Positions 649 to 57,832 of a DNA stretch of 64,000 bases are shown piece after piece (position 1 is the stretch's first letter; every line of letters starts with the position of its first letter). The position numbers and the translations under genes were made by a program. Origin of the DNA: Alphaproteobacteria bacterium. Lineage in GTDB: Bacteria; Pseudomonadota; Alphaproteobacteria; Caulobacterales; Parvularculaceae. The stretch lies in assembly GCA_016125455.1 (NCBI GenBank), contig WGLS01000027.1, positions 9,954 through 73,953 on the forward strand, written 5' to 3'. The notes under the pieces were generated by a model. That model was not told the origin of the DNA. It saw only the letters and a program-made list of their open reading frames with translations, and searched no databases.

Positions 649-2799
649 TCACCAAGCGCGGACACGGCCTGTCTGGGCCGAGTCTCGATGATTGCCGCTA
701 TCCGTTTCGAGCGACGCTTCGCCGTCCGCCTGCCCGCGCAATTCGGGCGGATCATAAGGCGAAGGCGTTACCATTCCTTCCAATCGGCCGCCATTCGCGG
801 GCGACCGCGCGGGCGCAAGCCGCGACAGGAACCGTTCCGCCGCCTTGCGTCGGCCAAGAGCCGTCATTGCCGACAGATAACCGGCCGCCGCAGCGCCGTC
901 GCCGGGATTGCGTCCGAGCGCGGCGCGATAGGCGTTCGCAGCCAATTCCGGCGCGCCCCCCGCCGCAAATCCCGTCGCCGCGAGCATCGGATCGCCGGAA
1001 AGGTCGACCGCACGGGCAAAGTCCACTAGCGCTGCCGATTTACCGGCGGCTGCGAGGAGCTCGATATACGTCGCCGCGGCGTCCGGGCGCTGCGCGACGT
1101 CCGCCGCCACTGGCGACAGCGCGAGAACGGCGCCGTCGATGTCCGACAGCGCTTCAAGCGCCGATGCAAGATCAAGCCGGACGTCGACGTTCGCAGGATT
1201 TAGCCGCGCCGCCCGCCGCAGGGCGGGCAACGCCGCCTCTGGCTGGCCCGCGGCGCTTGCCGCCCGCCAGACGCCACGGGCCGCCGATGCGGCGCCCGGA
1301 TCCCGGTCGGCGCTGAGACTGAAGAGCCTGACCGCTGCGGCGGCCTTGCCGGCGCGTAACAAGGCTTCCGCTCGAATCGCGAGATCCACCGCAGACCCGA
1401 CGATTTCGCCTGCCAATGCAGTCGGTTCAATCCGTGCCGCCGCCTCGCCGGCGTCGACGAGGCGACGTACCGCGGCCAGGTCTTCAGCCTTCGGCCACAG
1501 CGGATCATCGATGCCCTGCGGGGCGCCTTCGCCCAGCAGAAACGCGATGGCCGTTTCCGGCGCATCGACGCTTGGCCCCTCGCCAGTTTCGGCGTCCGCC
1601 GCTGCCCGCATCCATTCGAAAGCGGCCCAGTCATCGCCTTCGGCGCGCGCGAGCGCGATGCGTCGCGTTGCGCCAAGGCGTGGCGCGACGGCCGACAGGG
1701 CGGTCAGTGTTTCTTCGAGCGGCGTGCGGCCCGCGGCGGGGTCGGACAGCCATCGCGCAGCGGCAAGGAGGACCGCCACGTCCCGTGCAACCCAGTCGGC
1801 TGGCGCGCGGCGCAAGGAATTGTCCAGAAGACGCGCCGCAGTTGCCCGGTCCGACCCGGCAAGCTTTGCCAGGGCGCGCAGAAGATCGCCCCTCGGCGTC
1901 TGTTCAAGCGCAAAAGCGATGGAATCGAACGCCTGCGCCGCGTCGCGCGGGCGCCCCTGTTTCAACGCGACAAGGCCCGAGAGCCGCCGCGCATCAATGT
2001 CGATATCGCCGGCCGCGCCTGTTCGCTGGCCAAGCATGGAGAGGGCGGCGTCGAGACGTCCGGCGCGAATGTCCGCTTCGATGGCGATGGCGTCGACACG
2101 CGCCTCGCTGGCCCCGGCGTCTTTCGCCCGGCGCGCAGCAGCGCGAGCAAAGTCTTCTTCACCTTCATCAAGAGCGATCCGCGCACGCAGCAGCCACGCT
2201 TCCCGCTCGACGGCGGCGCCGCCGCCGAACGCTGGTCGCAGCCGTTCCGCCGCCGCCGCGCCTTGCCCGGCGTCCGCTGCATAGATCAGTCGCGCATCGA
2301 CAAGCGCCGCATAGGCCGCATAGGGCCCTTCGGCGAGTGCCGCGGCCCGCGCCTTCGCGGCGGCGACATCGCCGATGCGGAACTCCGCCTCAAGCATCAG
2401 CGCCTCGCGGGCCCCGTCATCGAGGACGGCGCTTCTTTCGGCCGTCAGGAAGCGCCGGACATCGTCGTTCCGCCCCGCCGCCATAAGCGCGTTCGCATAG
2501 GCAAGCGCCGTGCGTTCCCCAGGAGCGGCCTCGTAGGCCGCCTCCGCGCGAAACAACGCGAGACGACGCGCCTCCATGCTTTCATCAATTGATGGCGCGA
2601 CGCGGGCGCCGCCCTGCGCGGTCGAAGTTTCGCGCTGGCCGTTGGCAGCGGCGCGCAGGCCGACAATGGTTGCAGCGCCGAGGCATGCGCCAATCGCCGC
2701 AACGGCCAGCGGCCATCGCAGGTTGCGGGTCCATCGCAGGCGAGGCCCCTGCGCCGGTGGTGGCGATTTGGTCGACATTTCAGCCTTGCGTCGTCGCAT
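649..2799 (-). CDS. Ala-rich TPR-like helical-repeat protein with N-terminal membrane anchor (EPS-locus associated)
   Basis: 716-aa ORF. It has an N-terminal hydrophobic segment (WPLAVAAIGACLGAATIVGL) followed by repeated helical A/L/R-rich units typical of TPR proteins. It lies between the sugar transferase and export genes on the same strand. Confidence 0.6.
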   Translation of the reverse strand: MRRRKAEMSTKSPPPAQGPRLRWTRNLRWPLAVAAIGACLGAATIVGLRAAANGQRETSTAQGGARVAPSIDESMEARRLALFRAEAAYEAAPGERTALAYANALMAAGRNDDVRRFLTAERSAVLDDGAREALMLEAEFRIGDVAAAKARAAALAEGPYAAYAALVDARLIYAADAGQGAAAAERLRPAFGGGAAVEREAWLLRARIALDEGEEDFARAAARRAKDAGASEARVDAIAIEADIRAGRLDAALSMLGQRTGAAGDIDIDARRLSGLVALKQGRPRDAAQAFDSIAFALEQTPRGDLLRALAKLAGSDRATAARLLDNSLRRAPADWVARDVAVLLAAARWLSDPAAGRTPLEETLTALSAVAPRLGATRRIALARAEGDDWAAFEWMRAAADAETGEGPSVDAPETAIAFLLGEGAPQGIDDPLWPKAEDLAAVRRLVDAGEAAARIEPTALAGEIVGSAVDLAIRAEALLRAGKAAAAVRLFSLSADRDPGAASAARGVWRAASAAGQPEAALPALRRAARLNPANVDVRLDLASALEALSDIDGAVLALSPVAADVAQRPDAAATYIELLAAAGKSAALVDFARAVDLSGDPMLAATGFAAGGAPELAANAYRAALGRNPGDGAAAAGYLSAMTALGRRKAAERFLSRLAPARSPANGGRLEGMVTPSPYDPPELRGQADGEASLETDSGNHRDSAQTGRVRAW

Positions 2800-2866
2800 C
2801 CCTGTCCCCGGACGCCAATCCGGGCCGGTCGGGAAACGTCCGGCGACCGCTGCGCCGCGCCCGATG

Positions 2867-3652
2867 CTAGCGGGCTCCGAGCCCGAACAGGGCGACCCGG
2901 ACGGTCAGCAACACGATCCCCAGGTCCATGAGTGGCCCATTATTCTTAAGATAAAAGAGATCAAAGCGATGCTTTTCGACTGCATCTTCTATGGAAGCGC
3001 CATACTGGTGCTTGACCTGCGCCCAGCCCGTGATTCCCGGTTTCACGCTGTGGCGAAGGTCATAGTGCGGGATCGCTTCGCGCAGAAGACCGACAAACTC
3101 CGGACGCTCCGGGCGCGGCCCAACAAAGCTCATGTCGCCGGCGAGGACGTTAAAGGCCTGCGGGATTTCATCAATCCGGAAGTGCCTGATCAACCGCCCG
3201 ATCCGCGTGACGCGGTCGTCGTTGACCGCCGCCCATCGCGCGCCGCCGGCTTCGGCATCCTGTCGCATCGACCGAAACTTCACGATCCGGAACACCCGGC
3301 CGCCGGCGCCGACCCGTTCTTGTCGGTAGAAAACCGGACCGGCGGATTCGAGCGGAACAAGGATGGCGACAACCGCCAGCAATGGCGCCGACGCCAGCAA
3401 AAGCAACGACGCAAGCATGATGTCGAAGAAGCGTTTGGCCATCCGGAAGGCCGGGCTTGACGCCCTGGCAAGTCCGGCGCTCAGGTCGGCCGGCGCGAAT
3501 GCGGCGAGGTCAATCCGGTCCGACTGCGGCGGCGAAAGCCACCGCCCGCCCCGCGAACCGCCGCGGCGACCTGCGGGCTGGAGCAGCCCATAGGTAACGG
3601 CGCCGAACAGCGCGGCCGCGCCGCCAACAGCCGTGGGCAACATGACTTCCAT
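2867..3652 (-). CDS. Bacterial sugar transferase (polyprenyl-phosphate hexose-1-phosphate transferase, ExoY/WbaP C-terminal type)
   Basis: KRFFDIMLASLLLLASAPLLAVVAILV...GPVFYRQERVGAGGRVFRIVKFRSM...DDRVTRIGRLIRHFRIDEIPQAFNVLAGDMSFVGPRPERPEFV is the hallmark motif set. GGGGGA SD lies upstream of the ATG at 3652. Confidence 0.9.
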   Translation of the reverse strand: MEVMLPTAVGGAAALFGAVTYGLLQPAGRRGGSRGGRWLSPPQSDRIDLAAFAPADLSAGLARASSPAFRMAKRFFDIMLASLLLLASAPLLAVVAILVPLESAGPVFYRQERVGAGGRVFRIVKFRSMRQDAEAGGARWAAVNDDRVTRIGRLIRHFRIDEIPQAFNVLAGDMSFVGPRPERPEFVGLLREAIPHYDLRHSVKPGITGWAQVKHQYGASIEDAVEKHRFDLFYLKNNGPLMDLGIVLLTVRVALFGLGAR

Positions 3653-7184: not shown

Positions 7185-7640
7185 CTAGCTCGACCTGGCG
7201 GCTTTTCGCCTGACTGTTCGGCGCCTGACTATTGGGCGCTTGACGGCCTTTTGCGCCGAAGTCGCCGGCGCCTTCGTGTTCTTTCCGCTTACTGATTTCT
7301 TCTTCGGTTTCGGACCACGGGTCGCGGCGGCAAGGGCGAGGCCCGTCCAGCGTCGCAACGCTTCGGCATCGTCAAGAATGTCGTCCGGCGGGGCGTAGTA
7401 ATTCATGACGCCCTTCTCGCCGTCTTTTGTTTCGTAGGTGAAGGGCGGCAGGCCCGCCGCGAGGAATGCGCTGCGCGTCTCCTCGTCAGTCTTGAACCAG
7501 AGGTCGTCGTCGCCGATAATCGCAAAAATCCGGCCGTCGCAGTATACGCCGGCGCCGCCGAACATCCGCCGGACCGTGATCTCTCCGAACGGCGCGAAGA
7601 GGTCCTTAACGAAGTCGATATAGCCGGCGGAGACCGTCAC
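7185..7640 (-). CDS. TfoX/Sxy N-terminal-domain protein with Lys/Arg-rich tail
   Basis: RRMFGGAGVYCDGRIFAIIGDDDLWFKTDEE is the TfoX_N signature. The GTG start lies 7 nt after the sufA stop codon on the same strand. Confidence 0.75.
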   Translation of the reverse strand: MTVSAGYIDFVKDLFAPFGEITVRRMFGGAGVYCDGRIFAIIGDDDLWFKTDEETRSAFLAAGLPPFTYETKDGEKGVMNYYAPPDDILDDAEALRRWTGLALAAATRGPKPKKKSVSGKNTKAPATSAQKAVKRPIVRRRTVRRKAARSS

Positions 7641-7647
7641 CCGGCCC

Positions 7648-8013
7648 CTATGCGTCCGCCGCCGCCGGGACGATCGTCACGCTTTCGCCGCAGCCGCAGG
7701 CGTCGGTCTGGTTCGGGTTGTTGAACACGAACCGCTGCGACAGCTTCTCGGTGACGAAATCGATCTGCGTCCCAAGAAGAAAGAGGATCGCTTTCGGATC
7801 GATCAGCACCTTGACGCCGTTCTCCTCTACGACCTCGTCCAGGGGCGCGGCTTCGGTCGCGTACTCCATCGCGTATTCCATGCCGGCGCAGCCGCCATTC
7901 TTCACGCCGATCCTGACGCCGATGTAACCGGCCTCCGCATCGGACATGATCTCCTGCATGCGGGCCGCGGCGGCGTCGGTGAGAGTCACTACTTTCGGTC
8001 TTGGTCTCGGCAT
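7648..8013 (-). CDS. sufA: Fe-S cluster insertion/carrier protein (HesB/IscA/SufA family)
   Basis: GVKNGGCAGMEY...NPNQTDACGCGESV has the three conserved Cys. Start trimmed to the ATG at 8013. Confidence 0.9.
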   Translation of the reverse strand: MPRPRPKVVTLTDAAAARMQEIMSDAEAGYIGVRIGVKNGGCAGMEYAMEYATEAAPLDEVVEENGVKVLIDPKAILFLLGTQIDFVTEKLSQRFVFNNPNQTDACGCGESVTIVPAAADA

Positions 8014-8026
8014 AGCCAAACAGCCT

Positions 8027-8443
8027 CTACTCGCCTTTCACTTCCGCCCACGGATCATAGCTCCCGAAATTCCAGAGATGGCCTTCGGGGTCTATGCAGC
8101 CGAACGACCGCCCGCCATGGGGCGGGCTTTCGGGCCCGTAGGCGATTTTCGCGTCGGCGGCCGTCGCCCGATCGGCGAGGCCGTCGACATCGTCGACGAT
8201 GATATAGGCGCTCTGCGTCGTCCCGCCGAGGGCCATCGGCGTCCTCTGCAGGACGCCGAAACCATCGTCCCGCGCCGAGCCTAGCATGATCATCACCGGG
8301 CCAAGCGTCAGCTGCGCGTGCCTGACGCCGCCGTCGCCGTCGTCGACGACGAGATGCGGCTCGAACCCGAAGGCTTCGCCGAGCCAGCGGATCATCGCCG
8401 GCGCGTCTTCGTAGGTCATGGTGGGGATGATCCTGCCGCCCAT
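8027..8443 (-). CDS. VOC (glyoxalase/bleomycin-resistance) family protein
   Basis: IIPTMTYEDAPAMIRWLGEAFGFE...GCIDPEGHLWNFGSYDPW is typical of the VOC/PhnB-like fold. The ATG at 8443 overlaps the stop of the upstream DUF59 gene (TGATG). Confidence 0.8.
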   Translation of the reverse strand: MGGRIIPTMTYEDAPAMIRWLGEAFGFEPHLVVDDGDGGVRHAQLTLGPVMIMLGSARDDGFGVLQRTPMALGGTTQSAYIIVDDVDGLADRATAADAKIAYGPESPPHGGRSFGCIDPEGHLWNFGSYDPWAEVKGE

Positions 8444-10249: not shown

Positions 10250-11466
10250 GCCGTCCTCTCGCGAAGCCACTCGCCGACGAGCTCCGCCGCCGCCGGCCGG
10301 GCGGCCGCGTCCATATCGCCGATCAATTCCCCAACAAACGCCTCAATCAACAGCGCCCTCGCCGCCCCCTCGTCGAGGCCGCGCTGGCGCAGATAGAACA
10401 GCGCGTCGTCGTCAAGCGCGCCCGATGTCGATCCGTGAGCGCATTGAACGTCATCGGCGTAGATTTCCAGCTCAGGTTTGTGATTCGCCTGCGCTCGATC
10501 AGACAACAGAAGCGCATTCGCCTGCATTTCCGCGTCAGTTTTCTGTGCGCTTCGACCGACAAGAAACTTGCCCTGGAACACGGCGCGACCGTTGCCGTCG
10601 ACGACGCCCTTGTGCCGCTGGCGCGTTATGGCGCGCGCCTCGTCATGCGCGACGTGGCTCGTAAAGTCGGCGTGCCTGTCGCGATCGACCAACGCGACGG
10701 AATCGATGCGCACCCTTGCGTCCTCATCAACCAGCCAGGGAACAGTCTCGTGTCGCGCAAACCTCCCGCCCAACGACACCGACGACTGCTCGAATGCGCC
10801 GCCGACGCCAATGATCGCCCCGAAACTGCTGTGCAGCACGACCGACTGCTCAGTCGACTGCAACATCGTCCGCGCAATCGACGCGTTCTTGCCTGTTCGC
10901 GCAATCGCCGCATGGGAAACAAACGGCGCGCGCCCCTCGAAGGTCTCGATGACATTCAGGGTCGCGCAATTCCCGACCCGCATTGCAATGGACACAAAGA
11001 CGTCCTCGCGGCTGTCAAATATGTGCCGCAACCAGACAGCCCCGGCCGCGCCGTCGATCATTTCCACACGGATCTGTCGAACCGCCGCAGCGGTGTTGAG
11101 GTCGACAAGGCCCGAAAACCGGTCCCGCCAGTCGCATGGGTCGAGCGTATCATCCCACTCGTCCACTTCGACGACGCCAAGCGCCGCCGCAGCCTGCGCA
11201 TCCGCAATCCGGCCATTCACGATATTGACGCTCGGCGCGCCGATCTGGTCGAAGGCCGCTGAGCGCCCGGACGAAGCGGCGCCATTCGCCGCGCGCAGCG
11301 CCGCCGGCAGGTCGGACCATCGCCAACCCTCCACTCGACGATGCGGCGGGCCAACCTTCGAAAATCGCGCGAATGCCGCGCGTTTTTCATCGTTCGCCGG
11401 CAGGCTCTCAGCCGCCGGACGAAACCGCTCCACCAGATCATCGGCTATTTTTTGGTACACGGACAT
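10246..11466 (-). CDS. sufD: Fe-S cluster assembly protein SufD
   Basis: Sits between sufC and sufS. C-terminal ELEIYADDVQCAHGSTSGALDDDALFYLRQRGLDEGAARALLIEAF is the SufB/D signature. Confidence 0.85.
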   Translation of the reverse strand: MSVYQKIADDLVERFRPAAESLPANDEKRAAFARFSKVGPPHRRVEGWRWSDLPAALRAANGAASSGRSAAFDQIGAPSVNIVNGRIADAQAAAALGVVEVDEWDDTLDPCDWRDRFSGLVDLNTAAAVRQIRVEMIDGAAGAVWLRHIFDSREDVFVSIAMRVGNCATLNVIETFEGRAPFVSHAAIARTGKNASIARTMLQSTEQSVVLHSSFGAIIGVGGAFEQSSVSLGGRFARHETVPWLVDEDARVRIDSVALVDRDRHADFTSHVAHDEARAITRQRHKGVVDGNGRAVFQGKFLVGRSAQKTDAEMQANALLLSDRAQANHKPELEIYADDVQCAHGSTSGALDDDALFYLRQRGLDEGAARALLIEAFVGELIGDMDAAARPAAAELVGEWLRERTA

Positions 11467-49762: not shown

Positions 49763-49839
<77 letters not shown>

Positions 49840-49921: not shown

Positions 49922-50665
49922 TTATTCGCCGCGTTTTTGGGGTTTGCGAAACTCGATCATGAAAAAATCGTCGAGCCCCTCGACTTCCAGTTCCTGTTCG
50001 AAACGGAATCCGAAACTCTCGATCTCACTGATCATTTGCTCCTTGCCAAAGCGGATATGATCACGGGACGGATCATTGGCGCGGGCTGGGTCGTACTTGT
50101 GGTCGAGAACGTAAAAGCGGCCATCGTCCGCCAGCGCATCGCGGATGCTGCCGACGGTCGCTTCGGGATCCGCGAAATAATGGTAGGTGTCCGCCACGAA
50201 GGCGACGTCGGCGCTATTGCGCGGCAAAGTCACGTCATCTTCCCGGCTCAGGACGGCGATGACGTTGTCGATATCGGCGTCCGCGACGCGCTGTGTCACC
50301 AGCGACAGGAAACGCGGTTCGATATCGACCGCGTAGACGACGCCGTCCGGACCGACCGCAGGCGCGAAAAGCAGCGAATAAAGGCCTGTGCCGGCGCCGA
50401 TATCCGCGATCCTCTCGCCTGGGCGCAATCTGAGCGCATCGATCACCGCGTCGCGCGCGGCGTAAAGTTCCCGGCTGGAAATCTCCATCGTGTCGAGCCA
50501 CAGATCGACATTCGCGTTTTCGTCCTCGCCATAGGGCGGCGGGGGCAAAGGATCGGCCTGGTCATCGTCCCCGCCAGCGCAGGCCGCGAGGGCGAGAACC
50601 GCCGCGCAGGCCGCGCCCCGGCGACGCGCGCGCCGCGCTGTCCTTCGCCACAAGTCTATTCTCAT
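49922..50665 (-). CDS. Class I SAM-dependent methyltransferase with Arg-rich lipoprotein-type signal peptide
   Basis: Start trimmed to the ATG at 50665: MRIDLWRRTARRARRRGAACAAVLALAACAGG. SAM motif I is RIADIGAGTGLYS, followed by VYAVDIE. Confidence 0.8.
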   Translation of the reverse strand: MRIDLWRRTARRARRRGAACAAVLALAACAGGDDDQADPLPPPPYGEDENANVDLWLDTMEISSRELYAARDAVIDALRLRPGERIADIGAGTGLYSLLFAPAVGPDGVVYAVDIEPRFLSLVTQRVADADIDNVIAVLSREDDVTLPRNSADVAFVADTYHYFADPEATVGSIRDALADDGRFYVLDHKYDPARANDPSRDHIRFGKEQMISEIESFGFRFEQELEVEGLDDFFMIEFRKPQKRGE

Positions 50666-50972
50666 GTCGCGCCTGTCGCCCCGTTCCTCGCGCCAATTCC
50701 CCCGGTTGGCGGCGCACCCTAGGGCGCCAGCTTCGTCTCGCCAATCCTGGCAAAGCGCCATTTCGCGCCGCTTCCGATTGGCCGCGGGCCAAATTCGCGG
50801 TTTCGCTTGCAACGGGAAGACGCCGCCTCGCCTTCGCCCGTCGCGGTACGGTGATTGCAACAGCGTCGTCGCAAAGAACGTGGGCAACCGTCGATTTTCG
50901 TCGACGAGCCAATATGGGACAGTCGGAGCGCGTCGGGACTGGCCCCCGACGCGAGGAGATCCAGAGCAGCCA

Positions 50973-52325
50973 ATGCGCGACCTACTCATTCTGCTGGTCG
51001 TATTCGCAAGCGTCGCCGCCACGCTGCGGTATCCGTTCGTCGGCATTCTGGCCTGGGCGTGGTTTACGCTGATGACGCCGAACCAGCTTGGCTATGGCGC
51101 CTTTGGCGTGCCGCTCAACCTCGTGATCGCCGCGGCGACCATGGGCTCCATCGTCATCAATGGCGGCCTGAAGAACTTCAGAGCCGATCCGGTGACGCTT
51201 GCGCTGGTCTTGTTCGCCGGCTGGCTGACAATCAGCCAGTGGTTCTCGCTCGACGCAGATCAGTCCGCACAATATTATGATCGCTTTATCAAGACGATCG
51301 TCTTTATACTGCTCGCCATCCAGATGACGACCACGCGCCTGCGCGCCCATGCCTTGCTCTGGATGCTGGTGATCAGTGTCGGTTATTTTGGCGCAAAAGG
51401 CGGCCTCTTCACGCTGGCGACGCTCGGCCAGTATCGGGTTCAGGGAATCGAAGACACGGTTTTGGCCGACAACAACCATCTCGGCATCGCGATGGCGACG
51501 ATGCTGCCGCTTGTCGCGTATCTGCGCGAGCAATCGGCGCGCGCGATCGTCCGTCGGGGACTTGAAGGCCTGTTCGTCCTGATGCTGATCGCCGTCATCG
51601 GCACCCAGTCGCGCGGAGCGTTCATTTCCCTAGTGGTGTTCGCGGCGTTCTACTGGCTCTATTCGAAGCACAAGCTGGCCATTATCGCCGCTTTCGTCGC
51701 AATCGCGACGCCGACGCTTTTCATGATGCCGTCAAAATGGTTCGATCGCATGGCGACCATCGGCACGGCGACCGAAGACGAATCGTTCATGGGCAGGGTG
51801 AACGCCTGGCGGATAAATTTCCGCTTCGCTCAGGAAAATCCGGTGACCGGTGCGGGCCTTCGCGTCCCTTACGACGCCGACATGGTGCGAACGATCGAGC
51901 CTGGCCTCGCGGAAGGCGCCAAGGCGGCCCACAGCATCTATTTTGAAATGTTGGGCGGGACCGGTTTTGTCGGCCTGCTCATCTTTCTCACGACGCTGGC
52001 CGTCGCCATTCTGACGGCGATGGCGACCGCTCGTCGCGACAAGGGCGCTAATCCTGACGTCGCGACCTGGAAAGGTCGATTTGCCTATTATGCGCAGATC
52101 TCGCTGATCACTTTTTGCGTCGGCGGCGCTTCGGTCTCGCTTGAAATGTGGGACGGATACTGGATCGTTATTGCCCTGATCGCGGCGGCCGCTCGCGCCC
52201 CCGCTGAAGGGGCGGCGGAGTCCCGCGCAAAAGGCCAACAGCGTGCGCCCTACGCCGGCGAAACCTTTCGGCGCGCGCGGCTCGCGGACCGAAAGCGCGT
52301 CCTGCCGCCTGTCGTCGACGCCTGA
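50973..52325 (+). CDS. O-antigen ligase/polymerase-family (Wzy_C) membrane protein, resembling the exosortase-associated O-glycosylation ligase type
   Basis: Start trimmed to the ATG at 50973: MRDLLILLVVFASVAATLRYPFVGILAWAWFTLMTPNQL. Multi-TM. QSRGAFISLVV...AHSIYFEMLGGTGFVG is the Wzy_C core. Confidence 0.75.
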   Translation: MRDLLILLVVFASVAATLRYPFVGILAWAWFTLMTPNQLGYGAFGVPLNLVIAAATMGSIVINGGLKNFRADPVTLALVLFAGWLTISQWFSLDADQSAQYYDRFIKTIVFILLAIQMTTTRLRAHALLWMLVISVGYFGAKGGLFTLATLGQYRVQGIEDTVLADNNHLGIAMATMLPLVAYLREQSARAIVRRGLEGLFVLMLIAVIGTQSRGAFISLVVFAAFYWLYSKHKLAIIAAFVAIATPTLFMMPSKWFDRMATIGTATEDESFMGRVNAWRINFRFAQENPVTGAGLRVPYDADMVRTIEPGLAEGAKAAHSIYFEMLGGTGFVGLLIFLTTLAVAILTAMATARRDKGANPDVATWKGRFAYYAQISLITFCVGGASVSLEMWDGYWIVIALIAAAARAPAEGAAESRAKGQQRAPYAGETFRRARLADRKRVLPPVVDA

Positions 52326-52837: not shown

Positions 52838-55303
52838 GTGTTCGGCATCAGCGGCCCCATCAGACGGCTTATCGGCCTCGTCGCAATCTTTCTTGCCTTT
52901 GTGGCGTCCGGCGTCGCGTCGTTCCAGGTCCTGGGCGGCAGTTTCGGCTCGCCGGCCTTTGACGCCTATAAGGTTCTCCAACTTTTCGTGTTGAGCGGCG
53001 ACTGGGTCTTTGGACCGAACTCGAACTGGTTTGTGCGGCGACAGGCGTTCATTGCGCCCGTCTTCACGGTCATCGGGATCATCGAGATCTTCACGGCCCA
53101 GTTCTTTTTTCGAATCTGGCAGGCCTCGAAGCTCGCGCGAATGGACAATCACGCCGTCATCGCCGGCCTGACGCGCGAAACGATGTTCCTTCTCGCGTCC
53201 CTGCGGCACGCGAAGGAACGGGTGGACGTGGCGATTGTCGACGCCCGTTTCGACGATGACATGAGGGCGATGGCGAGACGACTTGGCGCCGTGACTATTG
53301 AAGGCGACGCCGCGTCGCCCGCGGCGCTAAAGGTCGCCCGCATCGACCGGGCGCAGATTGCGATTTCATTTCTGCCCGAAGCGGTCGACAGCCTTCAGTT
53401 CGTGCTCTCCGCCAACAGCCTTATTGAGGACAGCCGAAAGGCTGGCGCGCCTCGGAACCCGGGCGGCGACGCGCGCAGCGTTGATCTCTGGGTCCGGTTG
53501 CAGGACGCGGGCCTTGGCAGCCGGCTCGGCACCTATTTCAAGTTCGCCGGACTGTCCGCCGCCGCGCATCCGCGATTCTTCAGCATTGACGAGATCGCCG
53601 CCCGCAGGCTGATCCGCGCGCACCCGCCGGACCTTTACGCCGACGCGCTCGGCCAGACACGGGTTCACCTGGTCCTGTTCGGCCACAACGCACTGTCAAT
53701 CCAGGTCATCGCGGAGTGCCTTCGCCAGACGACCGTGGCCGGAGACGCTAACGTGACGGTCCTGACAGCCGACCCTGAAGTCGCCGAACGCGAGCTGCGG
53801 GCTATCTTTCCTTCGATCGACGACATGGTGAACCTTGAGGTCCGCCTGCTGACAGTTCATGCGAGCGGCATATCGCAGGCGGACTATCTTTCGCTGCCGA
53901 CCGACGCGTCCATGAACGTGATCTGCTTCGAAAAGCCCGAAGCCTCCGTGAACGCGGCCCTGTCGCTTCGGCGAATGCTGCTTGTGCCTCCTGACATTGG
54001 CGATGCAACGGTCGAACGGCGCACCAATGCGCCAATCCTCGTCCGCCTTTCGAATACGCGCGGGATTGGCGAACTGCTTCGCTCGAACGTCGACAAGAAA
54101 ACCCAGCGCGGCGCGGGCGCAAGCGACGCCGAGAGCGAAATTCCCGACGGCATATTTGCGTTTGGCGCAATAGAAGACCTGCTGACCGGCGATGCCGAAG
54201 ACCTGTTCGTGCCGACGCTGATCGATCCGATGCGCGAACGGCTCGCCCGCGCGCTGCACGAATCCTATGTCGAGAACCGCAGCGCGAATGACGCCGCAGC
54301 GGCCGGCGTCCGGACTGCGCCGTCGTGGGAAGTTCTCTCCCAGGATTTCCGGGAATCAAGTCGGCAGGCCGCGGATCATATCTGGGCGAAGGCGCGCGCT
54401 CTTCGCCTGAGGCTTGTCGACGGCGTCGCCGGCGCGTCGAGCCTGAACCTGTCAGATGAGGAAAATCAGAGGCTGGCCGAGCTGGAACACAATCGCTGGG
54501 TGAATGAACGGCTGCTCAATGGCTGGTCGAGAGGGGCGAAAAGAGTTGACGCCGCAAGAAGGCACAATCTCCTGCGACCGTGGTCGGAACTATCCGCAAG
54601 CGAACGAATGGTCGATGAGCGCCTTGCCGGACGGCTTGAAGCGACCGTACGCTCCGTCGGCAAGACGCTGCAGCGCGAGCTTGTTGTCGGCGTTGTCGGA
54701 CATCGGCCGACGCCGGGACGCGAGTTCGACGAGCGCCACGTGGCGCTGACCATCAGGGCGAAGCTCGAAAAACTGGTTCGCGATCACCCCGATCGGGCGG
54801 TCGTGCTTGTCACCTGCCTTGCTGAAGGCGCGGACACCATCGCCGCGGAAGTCGCGATCGGTCTCGGCATTCCCTACTGGGTGCCATTGCCGATGCCGTA
54901 CGAGGCCTACAGTCAGGATTTCATGGCGGGGCGGACGGTCAGCGACGCCGATGGGGGCGCTGCGCTGAGACGCTTCCGGCGCCTCGTTGCATTGAGTGAA
55001 CGGTACCTAGAGCTGCCGCTGAAATTCGGCGACCTTACTGAAATCAGCCTGTCCCAGGGCGACTATGTCTCGCCGAGGGCGCGCGACCATCAGTACGCCC
55101 TCGCGGGCGCCTACATCGTCGAAAGATCGGACGTCGTGCTGGCGGTCTGGGACGGACGCCCGAGCCAGGGCGTTGGCGGCACGGGCGACGTTGTTGCCTG
55201 GCGGGCCGCCGGGGAGGCGCCGCGGGAATTCGCGACGCCGGCGGCGTTTCGCATGCGTCCGGCGATCACGCCGGCCGTCATTATACGGCCGACCGCGGAC
55301 TAA
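52838..55303 (+). CDS. Multidomain membrane protein: 2-helix membrane module, two Rossmann/RCK(TrkA_N)-like modules, RyR-like repeats and a C-terminal SLOG/LOG-like domain
   Basis: 821-aa ORF with GTG start. Residues 8-95 have helices LIGLVAIFLAFVASGVASF and FIAPVFTVIGIIEIFTAQFFF. Residues ~105-180 and ~275-380 are Rossmann-like with degenerate Gly loops (AVIAGLTRE, LVLFGHNAL). Residues ~463-600 are RyR-like (LARALHESYV, ELEHNRWVNERLLNGWSRG...RRHNLLRPWSELSASERMVDE). Residues ~614-790 are SLOG-like (VVGVVGHRP, LAEGADTIAAEVAIGLGIPYWVPLP, VLAVWDGRPSQGVGGTGDVV). Domain calls are by eye. Confidence 0.7.
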   Translation: MFGISGPIRRLIGLVAIFLAFVASGVASFQVLGGSFGSPAFDAYKVLQLFVLSGDWVFGPNSNWFVRRQAFIAPVFTVIGIIEIFTAQFFFRIWQASKLARMDNHAVIAGLTRETMFLLASLRHAKERVDVAIVDARFDDDMRAMARRLGAVTIEGDAASPAALKVARIDRAQIAISFLPEAVDSLQFVLSANSLIEDSRKAGAPRNPGGDARSVDLWVRLQDAGLGSRLGTYFKFAGLSAAAHPRFFSIDEIAARRLIRAHPPDLYADALGQTRVHLVLFGHNALSIQVIAECLRQTTVAGDANVTVLTADPEVAERELRAIFPSIDDMVNLEVRLLTVHASGISQADYLSLPTDASMNVICFEKPEASVNAALSLRRMLLVPPDIGDATVERRTNAPILVRLSNTRGIGELLRSNVDKKTQRGAGASDAESEIPDGIFAFGAIEDLLTGDAEDLFVPTLIDPMRERLARALHESYVENRSANDAAAAGVRTAPSWEVLSQDFRESSRQAADHIWAKARALRLRLVDGVAGASSLNLSDEENQRLAELEHNRWVNERLLNGWSRGAKRVDAARRHNLLRPWSELSASERMVDERLAGRLEATVRSVGKTLQRELVVGVVGHRPTPGREFDERHVALTIRAKLEKLVRDHPDRAVVLVTCLAEGADTIAAEVAIGLGIPYWVPLPMPYEAYSQDFMAGRTVSDADGGAALRRFRRLVALSERYLELPLKFGDLTEISLSQGDYVSPRARDHQYALAGAYIVERSDVVLAVWDGRPSQGVGGTGDVVAWRAAGEAPREFATPAAFRMRPAITPAVIIRPTAD

Positions 55304-55348: not shown

Positions 55349-56836
55349 TCAGCCGAGTTCGCGCACAATGCGGAAGCCTGTGTCGTAGTCGTGCGCTTTG
55401 GCGCCGGCGGGCTTTCGGTGGGCCGCTCTGGTCCGCCATGCGCCGCCGTTGAATGCGCCGCCCTTCAGGACCCGTTGGGCGCATGCGCCAGCAACCGGAC
55501 GTCCGTCGCCGGGATTGCCCGCATGATTCGCTCGCCAGCAATCTTCCGTCCACTCCCAGGTATTGCCGTGCACGTCATAAAGACCGAACCCATTCGCCTT
55601 GTAGCTGCCGACCGGCATCGTCTTGCCGGCGGACTTCTCCTTCGACGCGCCGGCGTAAGGGTACTGGCCATTGAAATTCGCCTGGCTGGTTGAAATCGCA
55701 TTCCCGAACCAGAAAGGCGTCTTTGCGCCAGCGCGGGCGGCGTACTCCCATTCGGCTTCCGTCGGCAGGCGGTAGCGCTTGCCGGTTTTGGCGGAGATCC
55801 ACGCGAGATAGGCCTGCGCGTCTTCATACGAAATGTTGATGGCCGGTCGCTTGCCGCCGCCCCAGCCCTGATTGTTCGGGTCGTAACCGTTGCAGCCGCC
55901 GTCCTTTCGGCACTTGGCCCAGTCGTCAAAGGTCACTTCGTAGCGACCGATCGCGAACGAATAGCCGATCTCCGTCGGCACCTGCGGGGTCTCGGCGACT
56001 TCGCGGCTGGCCTCATCGTCAGGCGCGCCGAGTAGAAAGCTCCCCGGCGCGACAACAACGAGTTCCGGACATTCCTCGCAATCCTTGATGACATCGCCCG
56101 GGGCATAGCCCGACGCGGCCAGGCCGTCCGCGGCGTTCGCAACGATCTCGCCGCCTTTCGCCACAAGATCGCCTCCCTTGGCGAACAGATCCTTGCCAGC
56201 CGGCGTGGCGAAAGCGACGTACGCCCCGCCGCCAATCAGCGCCGCAAGCGCGAGCACGGCGACCGCCGGGCCGAGGGCGCCTGCCCCCTTCCCGCCACTG
56301 CGGCCGGATGGCGCCGCGCTTGCCGCCGCCGTCGCGTTCTTCCCAGCGCCAGTCGCGCTCGACTTCGCGACCTTCACCTTTGATGGCGCCTTTGATGGCG
56401 CCTTTGACGGCCCCCTGGCGTGAGCAGATGCGCCCGCGCCCCTCGCGGGCGCAACAAGCCGCCGGATTTCATCGACAACCCGCCGCCATTCCGGCGCATT
56501 CCTGTCGCCGCGCCAGCTGGTCAGATCCGCCGTCTGAACCCGCTTGAATCCGCGAGGCAATTCGATCGGATCAATCATGACGGGTATCAGGCGCCCCGAC
56601 TGCATCCCGTCGTCGGCTTCCTCCTGCACCCAGTTTGATCGCACCGAGGACATCGACCATACGACGAGGACGCAGTCCGATTCCTTCAGCCGTGCGTCAA
56701 TCACTTCCGAAAACGTGCTGCCGGGCGGAATTTCGGTATCCCACCAGACATTGAAACCTTCGCCCGCCAGCGCGGCGGCCATTTTCGACACGATATCGCG
56801 ATCGTTGCGCGAATAGCTGATGAAGATATCGGTCAC
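55349..56836 (-). CDS. TIR-domain protein fused through one TM helix to an FGE-sulfatase (SUMF1/EgtB/PvdO-type) domain
   Basis: 495-aa ORF with GTG start and GGGAGAG SD. Residues 1-125 are TIR-like (DIFISYSRNDRD, GFNVWWD, CVLVVWSMSSVRSNWVQEE). Residues 189-210 form a TM segment (PAVAVLALAALIGGGAYVAFA). Residues ~250-493 are FGE-like (YRLPTEAEWEYAARAG, GLYDVHGNTWEWTEDCW, RVLKGGAF). Confidence 0.85.
   Translation of the reverse strand: MTDIFISYSRNDRDIVSKMAAALAGEGFNVWWDTEIPPGSTFSEVIDARLKESDCVLVVWSMSSVRSNWVQEEADDGMQSGRLIPVMIDPIELPRGFKRVQTADLTSWRGDRNAPEWRRVVDEIRRLVAPARGAGASAHARGPSKAPSKAPSKVKVAKSSATGAGKNATAAASAAPSGRSGGKGAGALGPAVAVLALAALIGGGAYVAFATPAGKDLFAKGGDLVAKGGEIVANAADGLAASGYAPGDVIKDCEECPELVVVAPGSFLLGAPDDEASREVAETPQVPTEIGYSFAIGRYEVTFDDWAKCRKDGGCNGYDPNNQGWGGGKRPAINISYEDAQAYLAWISAKTGKRYRLPTEAEWEYAARAGAKTPFWFGNAISTSQANFNGQYPYAGASKEKSAGKTMPVGSYKANGFGLYDVHGNTWEWTEDCWRANHAGNPGDGRPVAGACAQRVLKGGAFNGGAWRTRAAHRKPAGAKAHDYDTGFRIVRELG
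56377..56412. repeat. 12-bp tandem repeat CCTTTGATGGCG x3 (in frame; APSK repeats in the TIR-TM linker)
   Basis: Read directly: cctttgatggcg cctttgatggcg cctttgacggcc. Confidence 0.9.
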
Positions 56837-57746: not shown

Positions 57747-57832
57747 TGGTGGAGGGGGGTGGATTCGAACCACCGTACGCCGAAGCGGGCAGATTTACAG
57801 TCTGCTGGATTTAACCACTCTCCCACCCCTCC
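57747..57832 (-). tRNA. tRNA-Tyr (anticodon GTA), long variable arm
   Basis: Reverse complement: GGAGGGGTGGGAGAGTGGTTAAATCCAGCAGACTGTAAATCTGCCCGCTTCGGCGTACGGTGGTTCGAATCCACCCCCCTCCACCA (86 nt). The cloverleaf folds by eye. Confidence 0.95.

Follow-up and report, generated by a model that had tools for sequence, protein, structure and literature searches.

The window analysed here, a stretch of 64,000 nucleotides from contig WGLS01000027.1 of an alphaproteobacterium of the Parvularculaceae, holds two convergent genes separated by 45 bp. The forward-strand gene (52838..55303, +) encodes a protein that joins a two-transmembrane (2-TM) pore module, two RCK units, paired RyR repeats and a SLOG fold, and the reverse-strand gene (55349..56836, −) encodes a protein with a TIR domain. 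We consider it probable, though well short of certain, that the two genes form a Thoeris-like module, in which a nucleotide derived from nicotinamide adenine dinucleotide (NAD) and made by the TIR protein gates the channel as its effector. The initial annotation of this DNA had proposed a ligand-gated pore or membrane-perturbing effector, and this is the best-supported description of the channel protein as judged from its sequence. A link to the TIR neighbour, which had been offered as pure speculation, has since gained support from (i) the pairing of the two genes at 11 loci, (ii) the co-varying divergence of their products and (iii) recent preprints on the ligands of RyR domains (PMC13232231; 10.64898/2026.06.04.730250). 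Already known are TIR-to-effector signalling, in Thoeris systems, and phage RyR-domain sponges for its signals. New is a host RCK channel with RyR Repeat12 and SLOG modules that is genetically tied to a TIR gene and is undescribed in the literature searched.

The channel gene begins with a GTG codon, its 821-residue product is identical to a protein-database record (P0001), and the call is supported by Pfam matches and full-length homologues. An AlphaFold2 monomer of the whole protein (predicted local distance difference test score [pLDDT] 72.6, predicted template modelling score [pTM] 0.75) places helices at residues 6-32, 39-52 and 64-101, followed by two Rossmann-type units, a helical module and an alpha/beta domain. 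With this model, Foldseek returned the gating rings of TrkA, CASTOR/DMI1, GsuK and Slo1, as well as MthK and RyR3 Repeat12. Both the open reading frame (ORF) and the domains first proposed for it are borne out. Five modules are confirmed in one polypeptide: a 2-TM pore, a first RCK, a second RCK, a Repeat12-like RyR repeat pair and a C-terminal SLOG fold. An NCBIfam scan of the protein gave no specific family match.

The pore module (52853..53122, +) consists of TM1 (residues ~6-32), a pore helix with a degenerate filter, YKVLQLFVLSGDW (residues 44-56), and TM2 (residues ~64-95). Hydropathy and the AlphaFold2 helices agree on the two membrane spans and on a short helix at residues 39-52, directly after which SGDW follows. 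When a profile of residues 1-260 built from 16 sequences was searched against the PDB, it matched MthK (E 3.4e-13) and GsuK (E 8.7e-13), each in one alignment extending from TM1 into the RCK, with YkvLqLFvL(S/E)GDW placed on the MthK segment YWTFVTIATVGYGDY at the cost of a two-residue deletion. The P-loop of the family thus reads Y-x-x-L-x-L-F-x-L-(S/E)-G-D-W against Y-W-T-F-V-T-I-A-T-V-G-Y-G-D-Y in MthK, and its filter is VLSGD in the window protein and VLEGD in many relatives, where MthK-type channels have TVGYGD. Across the alignments, Y44 and F50 are invariant, and G54, D55, A73 and P74 show little or no variation, also among relatives of 22-30% identity. By the alignment to MthK, the short segment between the helices is a homologous P-loop, and it lacks TVGYG, as had been noticed at the outset. 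The conservation of P-loop residues in such distant relatives therefore argues for a functional pore, and it fits a pore that is not K+-selective.

Behind the pore, RCK1 (residues 101-260; 53138..53617, +) is identified by Pfam TrkA_N at residues 107-198 (E 9e-7, 29.6 bits against a cut-off of 23.8), by PDB profile matches to RCK domains and by alignment. Together with RCK2 (residues 261-460; 53618..54217, +) it makes up a tandem gating-ring unit, which Foldseek aligned with the TrkA, CASTOR, GsuK and Slo1 rings over ~390-470 columns at a probability of 1.0. The glycine loop of RCK1 reads AGLTRET in the window clade and is the canonical GLGxxG in gammaproteobacterial relatives. Of the earlier suggestion of two Rossmann units with degenerate glycine loops, the two units hold, as RCK units, and the degeneracy of the RCK1 loop applies to this clade only. 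Over its N-terminal two-thirds, the protein is structurally closest to GsuK and MthK. They share with it the order of outer helix, pore helix, filter, inner helix and RCK (profile E ~1e-12 to 3e-13), and GsuK also has, by Foldseek, a tandem RCK pair per subunit. The window channel differs from both in its filter (VL(S/E)GD instead of TVGYGD), in ~360 additional C-terminal residues that contain the RyR pair and the SLOG fold, in the degenerate RCK1 glycine loop of its clade and in the pairing of its gene with a TIR gene.

The first of these C-terminal additions, the RyR Repeat12-like pair, occupies residues 461-610 (54218..54667, +). Its repeat 1 (~467-527) is degenerate, while repeat 2 (residues 538-610; nt 54449-54667) matches RyR repeats in the PDB profile search (E 1.7e-25) and contains a Pfam RyR match (PF02026) at residues 543-598 (E 9e-11, 42.3 bits against a cut-off of 27.4). 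Foldseek alignments of the pair to RyR3 Repeat12 extend over ~200 columns, and the RyR-like repeats seen initially in the translation are thus substantiated. Repeat 2 carries the tetrad H551/W554/H576/D593 at a spacing of +3/+25/+17, which is absent from repeat 1, and the PDB profile alignment shows the same spacing in a B. thetaiotaomicron RyR domain. This HWHD combination is the commonest state of the tetrad in the family, being found in 40 of 86 RyR domains of SLOG-bearing proteins and in 25 of 103 of SLOG-less ones. In RyR3, as in RyDEP and RyR-Tad, residues of this His/Trp/His/Asp tetrad bind ligands of the adenine-ADPR kind. Two preprints from 2026 bear on what the tetrad does. In RyDEP, H75/W78/H100/D117, spaced identically to the residues of the window protein, bind the cyclic adenosine diphosphate ribose (cADPR) isomers 2'cADPR and 3'cADPR, both of which RyDEP also cleaves, and of eight RyDEP homologues tested, binding of the signals was seen for six and cleavage for none (PMC13232231). 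RyR-Tad binds 3'cADPR with a dissociation constant of 43 nM, and 2'cADPR and cADPR at <1 µM, through H129/W132, H154 and D171 (10.64898/2026.06.04.730250). Binding of 2'cADPR, 3'cADPR and cADPR by these two proteins thus lies between nM and sub-µM (PMC13232231; 10.64898/2026.06.04.730250). With RyDEP and RyR-Tad (PF02026), the channel shares the Repeat12-type fold and the H-W-H-D tetrad at identical spacing. Unlike those small, soluble, homodimeric phage anti-defence proteins, it has two unequal repeats set in a host membrane channel, and here the pair is presumably a receptor rather than a sponge. Judged by its residues, the RyR module would be no weaker a candidate than the SLOG domain for the role of signal receptor.

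That second candidate, the SLOG-fold domain (residues 611-821; 54668..55300, +), was assigned from a structural model, Foldseek, sub-threshold Pfam matches and alignment. A model of residues 606-821 on their own is confident (pLDDT 83.8, pTM 0.84), and its best Foldseek match is YpsA 2nx2 (E 1.2e-5, TM-scores 0.49/0.59), with ShosA, TM1055, DprA and the Moco carrier protein among further matches and the N-termini of TRPM8 lower down. We take all of these, YpsA and the TRPM8 N-terminus included, to be members of the SLOG superfamily, and TM1055 to be a LOG-family protein. In Pfam, YAcAr matched residues 628-673 of the window protein (E 6e-4, 20-21.6 bits) under its cut-off of 28.2, and matches at E ≤0.1 among 16 relatives were to YAcAr in 7 (best 1.8e-4), to YpsA in 3 (0.011) and to DprA in 2 (0.072). 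The C-terminal domain, as modelled, is accordingly described as a divergent member of the SLOG fold that lies outside the curated Pfam families, which agrees with the SLOG-like end of the first description. Its conserved motifs (GxxGHR, LAEGAD, PLPxPYE, RxxQY, WDG and GGT) are in part polar, and the conserved polar motifs suggest a putative ligand or catalytic pocket.

The RyR and SLOG modules could also serve another function. The protein could be a non-conducting, membrane-tethered regulator or enzyme, in which the RyR module hydrolyses or sponges gcADPR (hydrolysis through an H551/D593 dyad) and/or the SLOG domain is a LOG-like hydrolase, so that it sets the threshold of the TIR signal or ends it, with the effector lying elsewhere or consisting of NAD+ depletion. 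LOG-family SLOG domains are hydrolases, which counts for this explanation, as do the degenerate filter without TVGYG and the low model confidence of the TM region. The full RyDEP catalytic dyad and the binding residues are kept as well (PMC13232231). We nevertheless regard it as quite improbable, because (i) most RyDEP homologues with these residues bind the signals and do not cleave them (PMC13232231), (ii) the pore helix, the (S/E)GD motif, A73-P74 in TM2 and the tandem-RCK ring are all kept in very distant relatives, which would be odd for a mere anchor, and (iii) a gating ring would be needless in a pure sink.

The gene expected to be a TIR neighbour of the channel proved to be one, its product matching Pfam TIR_2 (E 1e-26) and FGE-sulfatase (E 3e-47) at 55349-56836 (−). 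The TIR domain covers residues 1-125 (56462-56836, −; Pfam TIR_2), a single TM helix lies at residues ~186-210 (~56207-56281, −; hydropathy and sequence), and an FGE-sulfatase/C-type-lectin-like domain, predicted to be periplasmic, covers residues 256-492 (55361-56071, −; Pfam). In TIR-FGE proteins, the two domains are separated by a K/R-rich linker and one strongly hydrophobic helix; the TIR is followed by one hydrophobic helix in TIR-TPR proteins and by 1-3 hydrophobic segments in TIR-WD40 proteins. Because the TIR needs cytoplasmic NAD+ and no signal peptide was found on the TIR partner, we place the FGE and TPR domains, by inference, in the periplasm. Each of the 10 partner TIRs whose domain lay within the available DNA has the catalytic Glu (WVQEE). 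FGE-type (FGS) domains have been described as ligand-recognition modules of conflict systems (PMC7159879). A ligand-binding domain outside, one TM helix and a TIR domain inside would recall animal Toll-like receptors, by analogy and not by homology. PADLOC matched only generic TIR models on the partner protein, and a homologue search with the TIR domain returned two matches, one of which is a lone TIR in an AbiU2/McrB context.

Signalling between the two proteins could in principle run the other way, with the channel sensing an ionic, membrane or nucleotide perturbation and activating the TIR protein as an NAD+-depleting effector; in CBASS, Pycsar, pAgo and Avs, the effector is indeed a TIR domain with NADase activity (10.64898/2025.12.03.692087). 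This direction seems highly improbable to us, since every TIR partner has a sensor module of its own (FGE, WD40, TPR or STAND), the channel has nucleotide-receptor folds and not signal-generating ones, and no interaction domain is common to both proteins.

The association of the two genes is not confined to the window. A TIR gene was found beside a SLOG-bearing channel, or one small gene away from it, at 11 independent loci (channel identity 33-64%), and four kinds of sensor module occur as fusions to the TIR at these loci: FGE-sulfatase, WD40, TPR and nSTAND1. TIR-TM-FGE genes are convergent with the channel in the window and at L001, L003 and L012, TIR-TM-WD40 genes are co-directional with it at L007, L024 and L038, and TIR-TM-TPR genes occur in both orientations at L031, L032 and L033, with a gene for a ~150-aa protein between TIR and channel. 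At L036, a TIR-nSTAND1 protein of 1,808 aa is encoded beside a channel 33% identical to that of the window; at a further locus, L035, a truncated WD40 neighbour lies beside the channel. The flanks of the 11 loci are unrelated (Fix genes, beta-lactamase, Trp synthase, HrpB and O-antigen ligase), with FixS, beta-lactamase and Trp synthase among the neighbours at loci other than the window's. Since sensor module and orientation vary while TIR and channel stay paired, the arrangement points to functional coupling and not to inherited synteny. Mere synteny was considered as an explanation and rejected, because flanks, orientation and the sensor domain of the TIR protein all differ between loci. The pairwise identities of TIR and channel correlate with a Pearson r of 0.80 over 45 pairs, which are non-independent, so that no probability can be attached to this value.

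Other genes accompany some of these modules. The small gene of the TPR variant (L031:4462-4914, L032:4544-4990, L033:4099-4605) encodes proteins that are barely alignable by BLAST and had no Pfam match in the pre-computed annotation. The L031 and L033 copies carry lipoprotein signals (LAAC and FMGC), and the ~150-aa protein may be a periplasmic co-sensor. At L032, a LigT/2H-phosphoesterase gene (7626-8114) directly follows that of the channel, with a LOG-family (Lysine_decarbox) gene not far off (10318-11226); by analogy with other members of these folds, which act on nucleotide or ADP-ribose (ADPR)-type substrates, their products may process the signal. Genes for DUF4956, Metallophos and polyphosphate-kinase proteins recur next to the TIR-channel pair at three loci (L001:14222-16409, L031:1-1840, L033:7916-9041), which may stem from common ancestry of the region or from a link in function.

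The family to which the channel belongs is much larger than first appeared. A word-indexed homologue search had found 6 relatives only, and this apparent rarity was superseded by an exhaustive profile search, which matched 15,498 representatives at E<1e-3 and 1,802 at E<1e-30. The architecture can therefore no longer be called unusual, as it had been. It was scored in the best 150 representatives, 155 proteins in all: pore-RCK-RCK-RyR without SLOG was found in 38 and the same order with SLOG in 37, or more if weakly scored N-termini are counted. Other variants have a second RyR module or an N-terminal SLOG, or are free-standing RyR-SLOG proteins. At L028, a SLOG-less pore-RCK-RCK-RyR channel gene (391-2193, +) adjoins a convergent, separate SLOG gene (2677-3270, −; 197 aa), whose product is homologous to the SLOG end of the fused proteins. 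This pair is a split version of the SLOG-channel fusion and counts in favour of the proposed module. A metagenome scan added only 5 more loci. No description of a combined RCK channel, RyR and SLOG architecture was found in the literature searched; the architecture is thus common yet undescribed there.

Several results weigh against a TIR-gated channel module. About half of the representative family lacks SLOG, and no TIR gene was found in the available flanks, several of them on short contigs, of nine gammaproteobacterial metagenome-assembled-genome loci (L014-L021, L026) that have the same architecture at ~30% identity. Because of these two observations, the core channel must also work without an adjacent TIR. 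The window locus does not lie in a defence island, as its flanks are of the housekeeping type; guanine-plus-cytosine content is flat at ~0.63 across the window block and gives no clear indication of an island; the two genes are convergent and hence not co-transcribed; and a PADLOC scan of the channel protein matched no model. Within the protein, the K+ signature T-V-G-Y/F-G-D is absent, the aligned segment F-V-L-S-G-D being 2 residues shorter, and for this reason we do not file the channel as K+-selective. The TM region of the AlphaFold2 monomer is of low confidence (pLDDT 41-60). A sequence profile of the SLOG domain found no meaningful relative in the PDB, and the SLOG assignment comes from the fold search with a predicted model and from Pfam scores under cut-off. 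Finally, a sensor-fused TIR protein can be an effector by itself, through depletion of NAD+.

An explanation that draws on several of these points is that the protein is a GsuK-type housekeeping cation or K+ channel, sensing adenosine tri- or diphosphate (ATP, ADP), NAD or ADPR for ion homeostasis, and that its TIR neighbour is an independent NAD+-depleting defence protein. The family is large and mostly without a known partner, the nine gammaproteobacterial loci lack a TIR gene, and the window flanks are housekeeping genes. The closest structures are GsuK, TrkA and MthK, and RyR3 Repeat12, as seen in two structures on the Foldseek list, binds ADP and AMP-PCP (PDB 9l9b, 9ls7). In addition, TIR-STAND and TIR-repeat proteins include known effectors that work without a partner (10.64898/2025.12.03.692087). 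We give this explanation some weight but hold it to be unlikely. TIR genes are rare, and 11 loci with four kinds of fusion, both orientations and unrelated flanks are not expected by chance or by synteny alone; the divergence of TIR and channel co-varies; and the RyR and SLOG modules are both folds that have been shown to bind TIR products.

The data directly show the identities of the domains, the homology of pore and RCK to MthK/GsuK, the conserved ligand residues, the membrane anchor of the TIR protein and the recurrent pairing of TIR and channel genes. For the Thoeris-like module that we prefer, we infer the signal and its binding, the tetrameric ring, conduction and the biological role as follows. 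The partner would sit in the inner membrane, with its TIR domain in the cytoplasm and its FGE/C-type-lectin-like domain in the periplasm. A cue bound by the periplasmic domain would bring TIRs into association, and these would convert NAD+ to a nucleotide derived from ADP-ribose, for which a cyclic ADPR isomer is the likeliest identity. The nucleotide would be received by the RyR Repeat12-like pair and/or the C-terminal SLOG domain of the channel. The resulting conformational change would be relayed by the tandem-RCK ring, to which four subunits would presumably contribute eight RCK domains, as they do in GsuK and Slo, and would open the 2-TM pore, which, because its filter is VLSGD or VLEGD and not TVGYGD, probably offers a poorly selective cation path. 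Ion flux through this path could dissipate the membrane potential or ion gradients, leading to growth arrest, cell death or abortive infection, or else to an envelope-stress response.

The closest known system is Thoeris, of which types I-XI combine a TIR protein, ThsB, with a signal-activated effector (Yirmiya et al. 2025 preprint, 10.64898/2025.12.03.692087). Its effectors are listed as 29 types, among them a verified 'ion channel' in type X, which works with a short ThsB TIR; in type I, ThsA senses 3'cADPR through SLOG, which is also present in effectors of types III and IX, and effectors that act on membranes belong to types II, V, VII and X (10.64898/2025.12.03.692087). The window pair resembles Thoeris in that a TIR gene with the catalytic Glu adjoins an effector gene bearing a nucleotide-sensor fold. 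It differs in that the TIR partner is not a short ThsB but a large TIR_2 (PF13676) protein fused to FGE, WD40 or TPR via a TM helix, or to nSTAND1, in that channel and TIR genes are often convergent, and in that the window locus is outside a defence island. An RCK channel with RyR and SLOG is not among the Thoeris effectors named in the preprint or in the part of its tables that was available; the terms 'RyR', 'TrkA', 'FGE' and 'sulfatase' are absent from its main text, and 'RyR' and 'TrkA' from that part of the tables (10.64898/2025.12.03.692087). This comparison covers the named effectors; the '4TM SLOG' candidates of the same preprint fall outside it (10.64898/2025.12.03.692087).

Identity with type X Thoeris, the type with a verified channel, was considered and rejected, because both the TIR type and the effector differ. 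A probable type X effector (L030:3247-3987) of 246 aa is hydrophobic and multi-pass by inspection, has no Pfam match and is encoded beside the gene of a TIR protein that shares 89% identity with its type X counterpart in B. cereus Q1. This protein, whose identity as ThsK was taken from its position, showed no similarity to the window pore (hhalign probability 0.2%). Type X has a short TIR of the ThsB type (cluster 2598792572), unlike the sensor-fused PF13676 TIR found here. When plasmids were searched with a type X TIR, all systems found were of type II (Macro). Within L029/L030:3247-5686, beside the type X-like ThsB TIR, a convergent gene for a 380-aa protein has a faint match to nucleoside 2-deoxyribosyltransferase, a fold related to TIR and SLOG.

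Resemblance to animal channels is a matter of single modules. The window protein has in one channel both the Repeat12 fold of ryanodine receptors and the SLOG-like fold of the N-terminal MHR1/2 of TRPM2/TRPM channels. TRPM2 is gated by ADPR. The pore and ring of the window protein are of the prokaryotic RCK type and unrelated to the 6-TM pores of RyR and TRP channels, and homology of the whole proteins is not implied. Activation of RyR-family channels by cADPR has been reported (10.64898/2025.12.03.692087; PMC13232231). By analogy, we put forward, as a possibility and tentatively, that a transmembrane TIR receptor in the style of Toll-like receptors makes a cyclic-ADPR-type product that directly gates a cation channel through RyR Repeat12 and a TRPM-like SLOG domain. 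If this is true, the protein would be the first natural channel with an RyR repeat as a receptor for cADPR isomers, and it would offer a tractable prokaryotic model for the disputed link between cADPR and the ryanodine receptor and for the origin of channel gating by NAD metabolites. Should the Thoeris-like model be right, the RyR repeat, whose function is unclear in animals, would gain a cADPR-type receptor role that can be tested in a small bacterial protein. Unannotated membrane proteins of the 'RyR domain-containing' or 'TrkA' kind, of which there are thousands, would acquire a probable ligand class. A ligand-gated ion channel of defined ancestry would join the known TIR effectors. Bacterial TIR proteins would also be seen as transmembrane receptors whose periplasmic FGE, TPR or WD40 sensors monitor the envelope and not the cytoplasm. 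What the evidence supports is that the pair belongs to TIR-based signalling, that its effector has an architecture as yet undescribed and its TIR sensors are anchored in the membrane, and that it bears on the cADPR-RyR question.

The neighbours of the pair in the window include genes for an O-antigen ligase, methyltransferases, Dus, GST, SDR and HAD proteins. A scan of the locus for promoters and terminators found nothing distinctive. Two tRNA genes, tRNA-Met (49763-49839, −) and tRNA-Tyr (57747-57832, −), bracket a block made up of methyltransferase, O-antigen ligase, channel and TIR genes. As called from 57759, the SpoU ORF would overlap tRNA-Tyr, and it must therefore begin later. A class-I methyltransferase ORF (49922-51046, −) matched PADLOC mad2 (E 2e-19), most likely through its generic methyltransferase domain. 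The same ORF overlaps that of an exosortase-A-associated O-antigen ligase (50664-52325, +) by ~380 nt, and one of the two starts is therefore mis-set.

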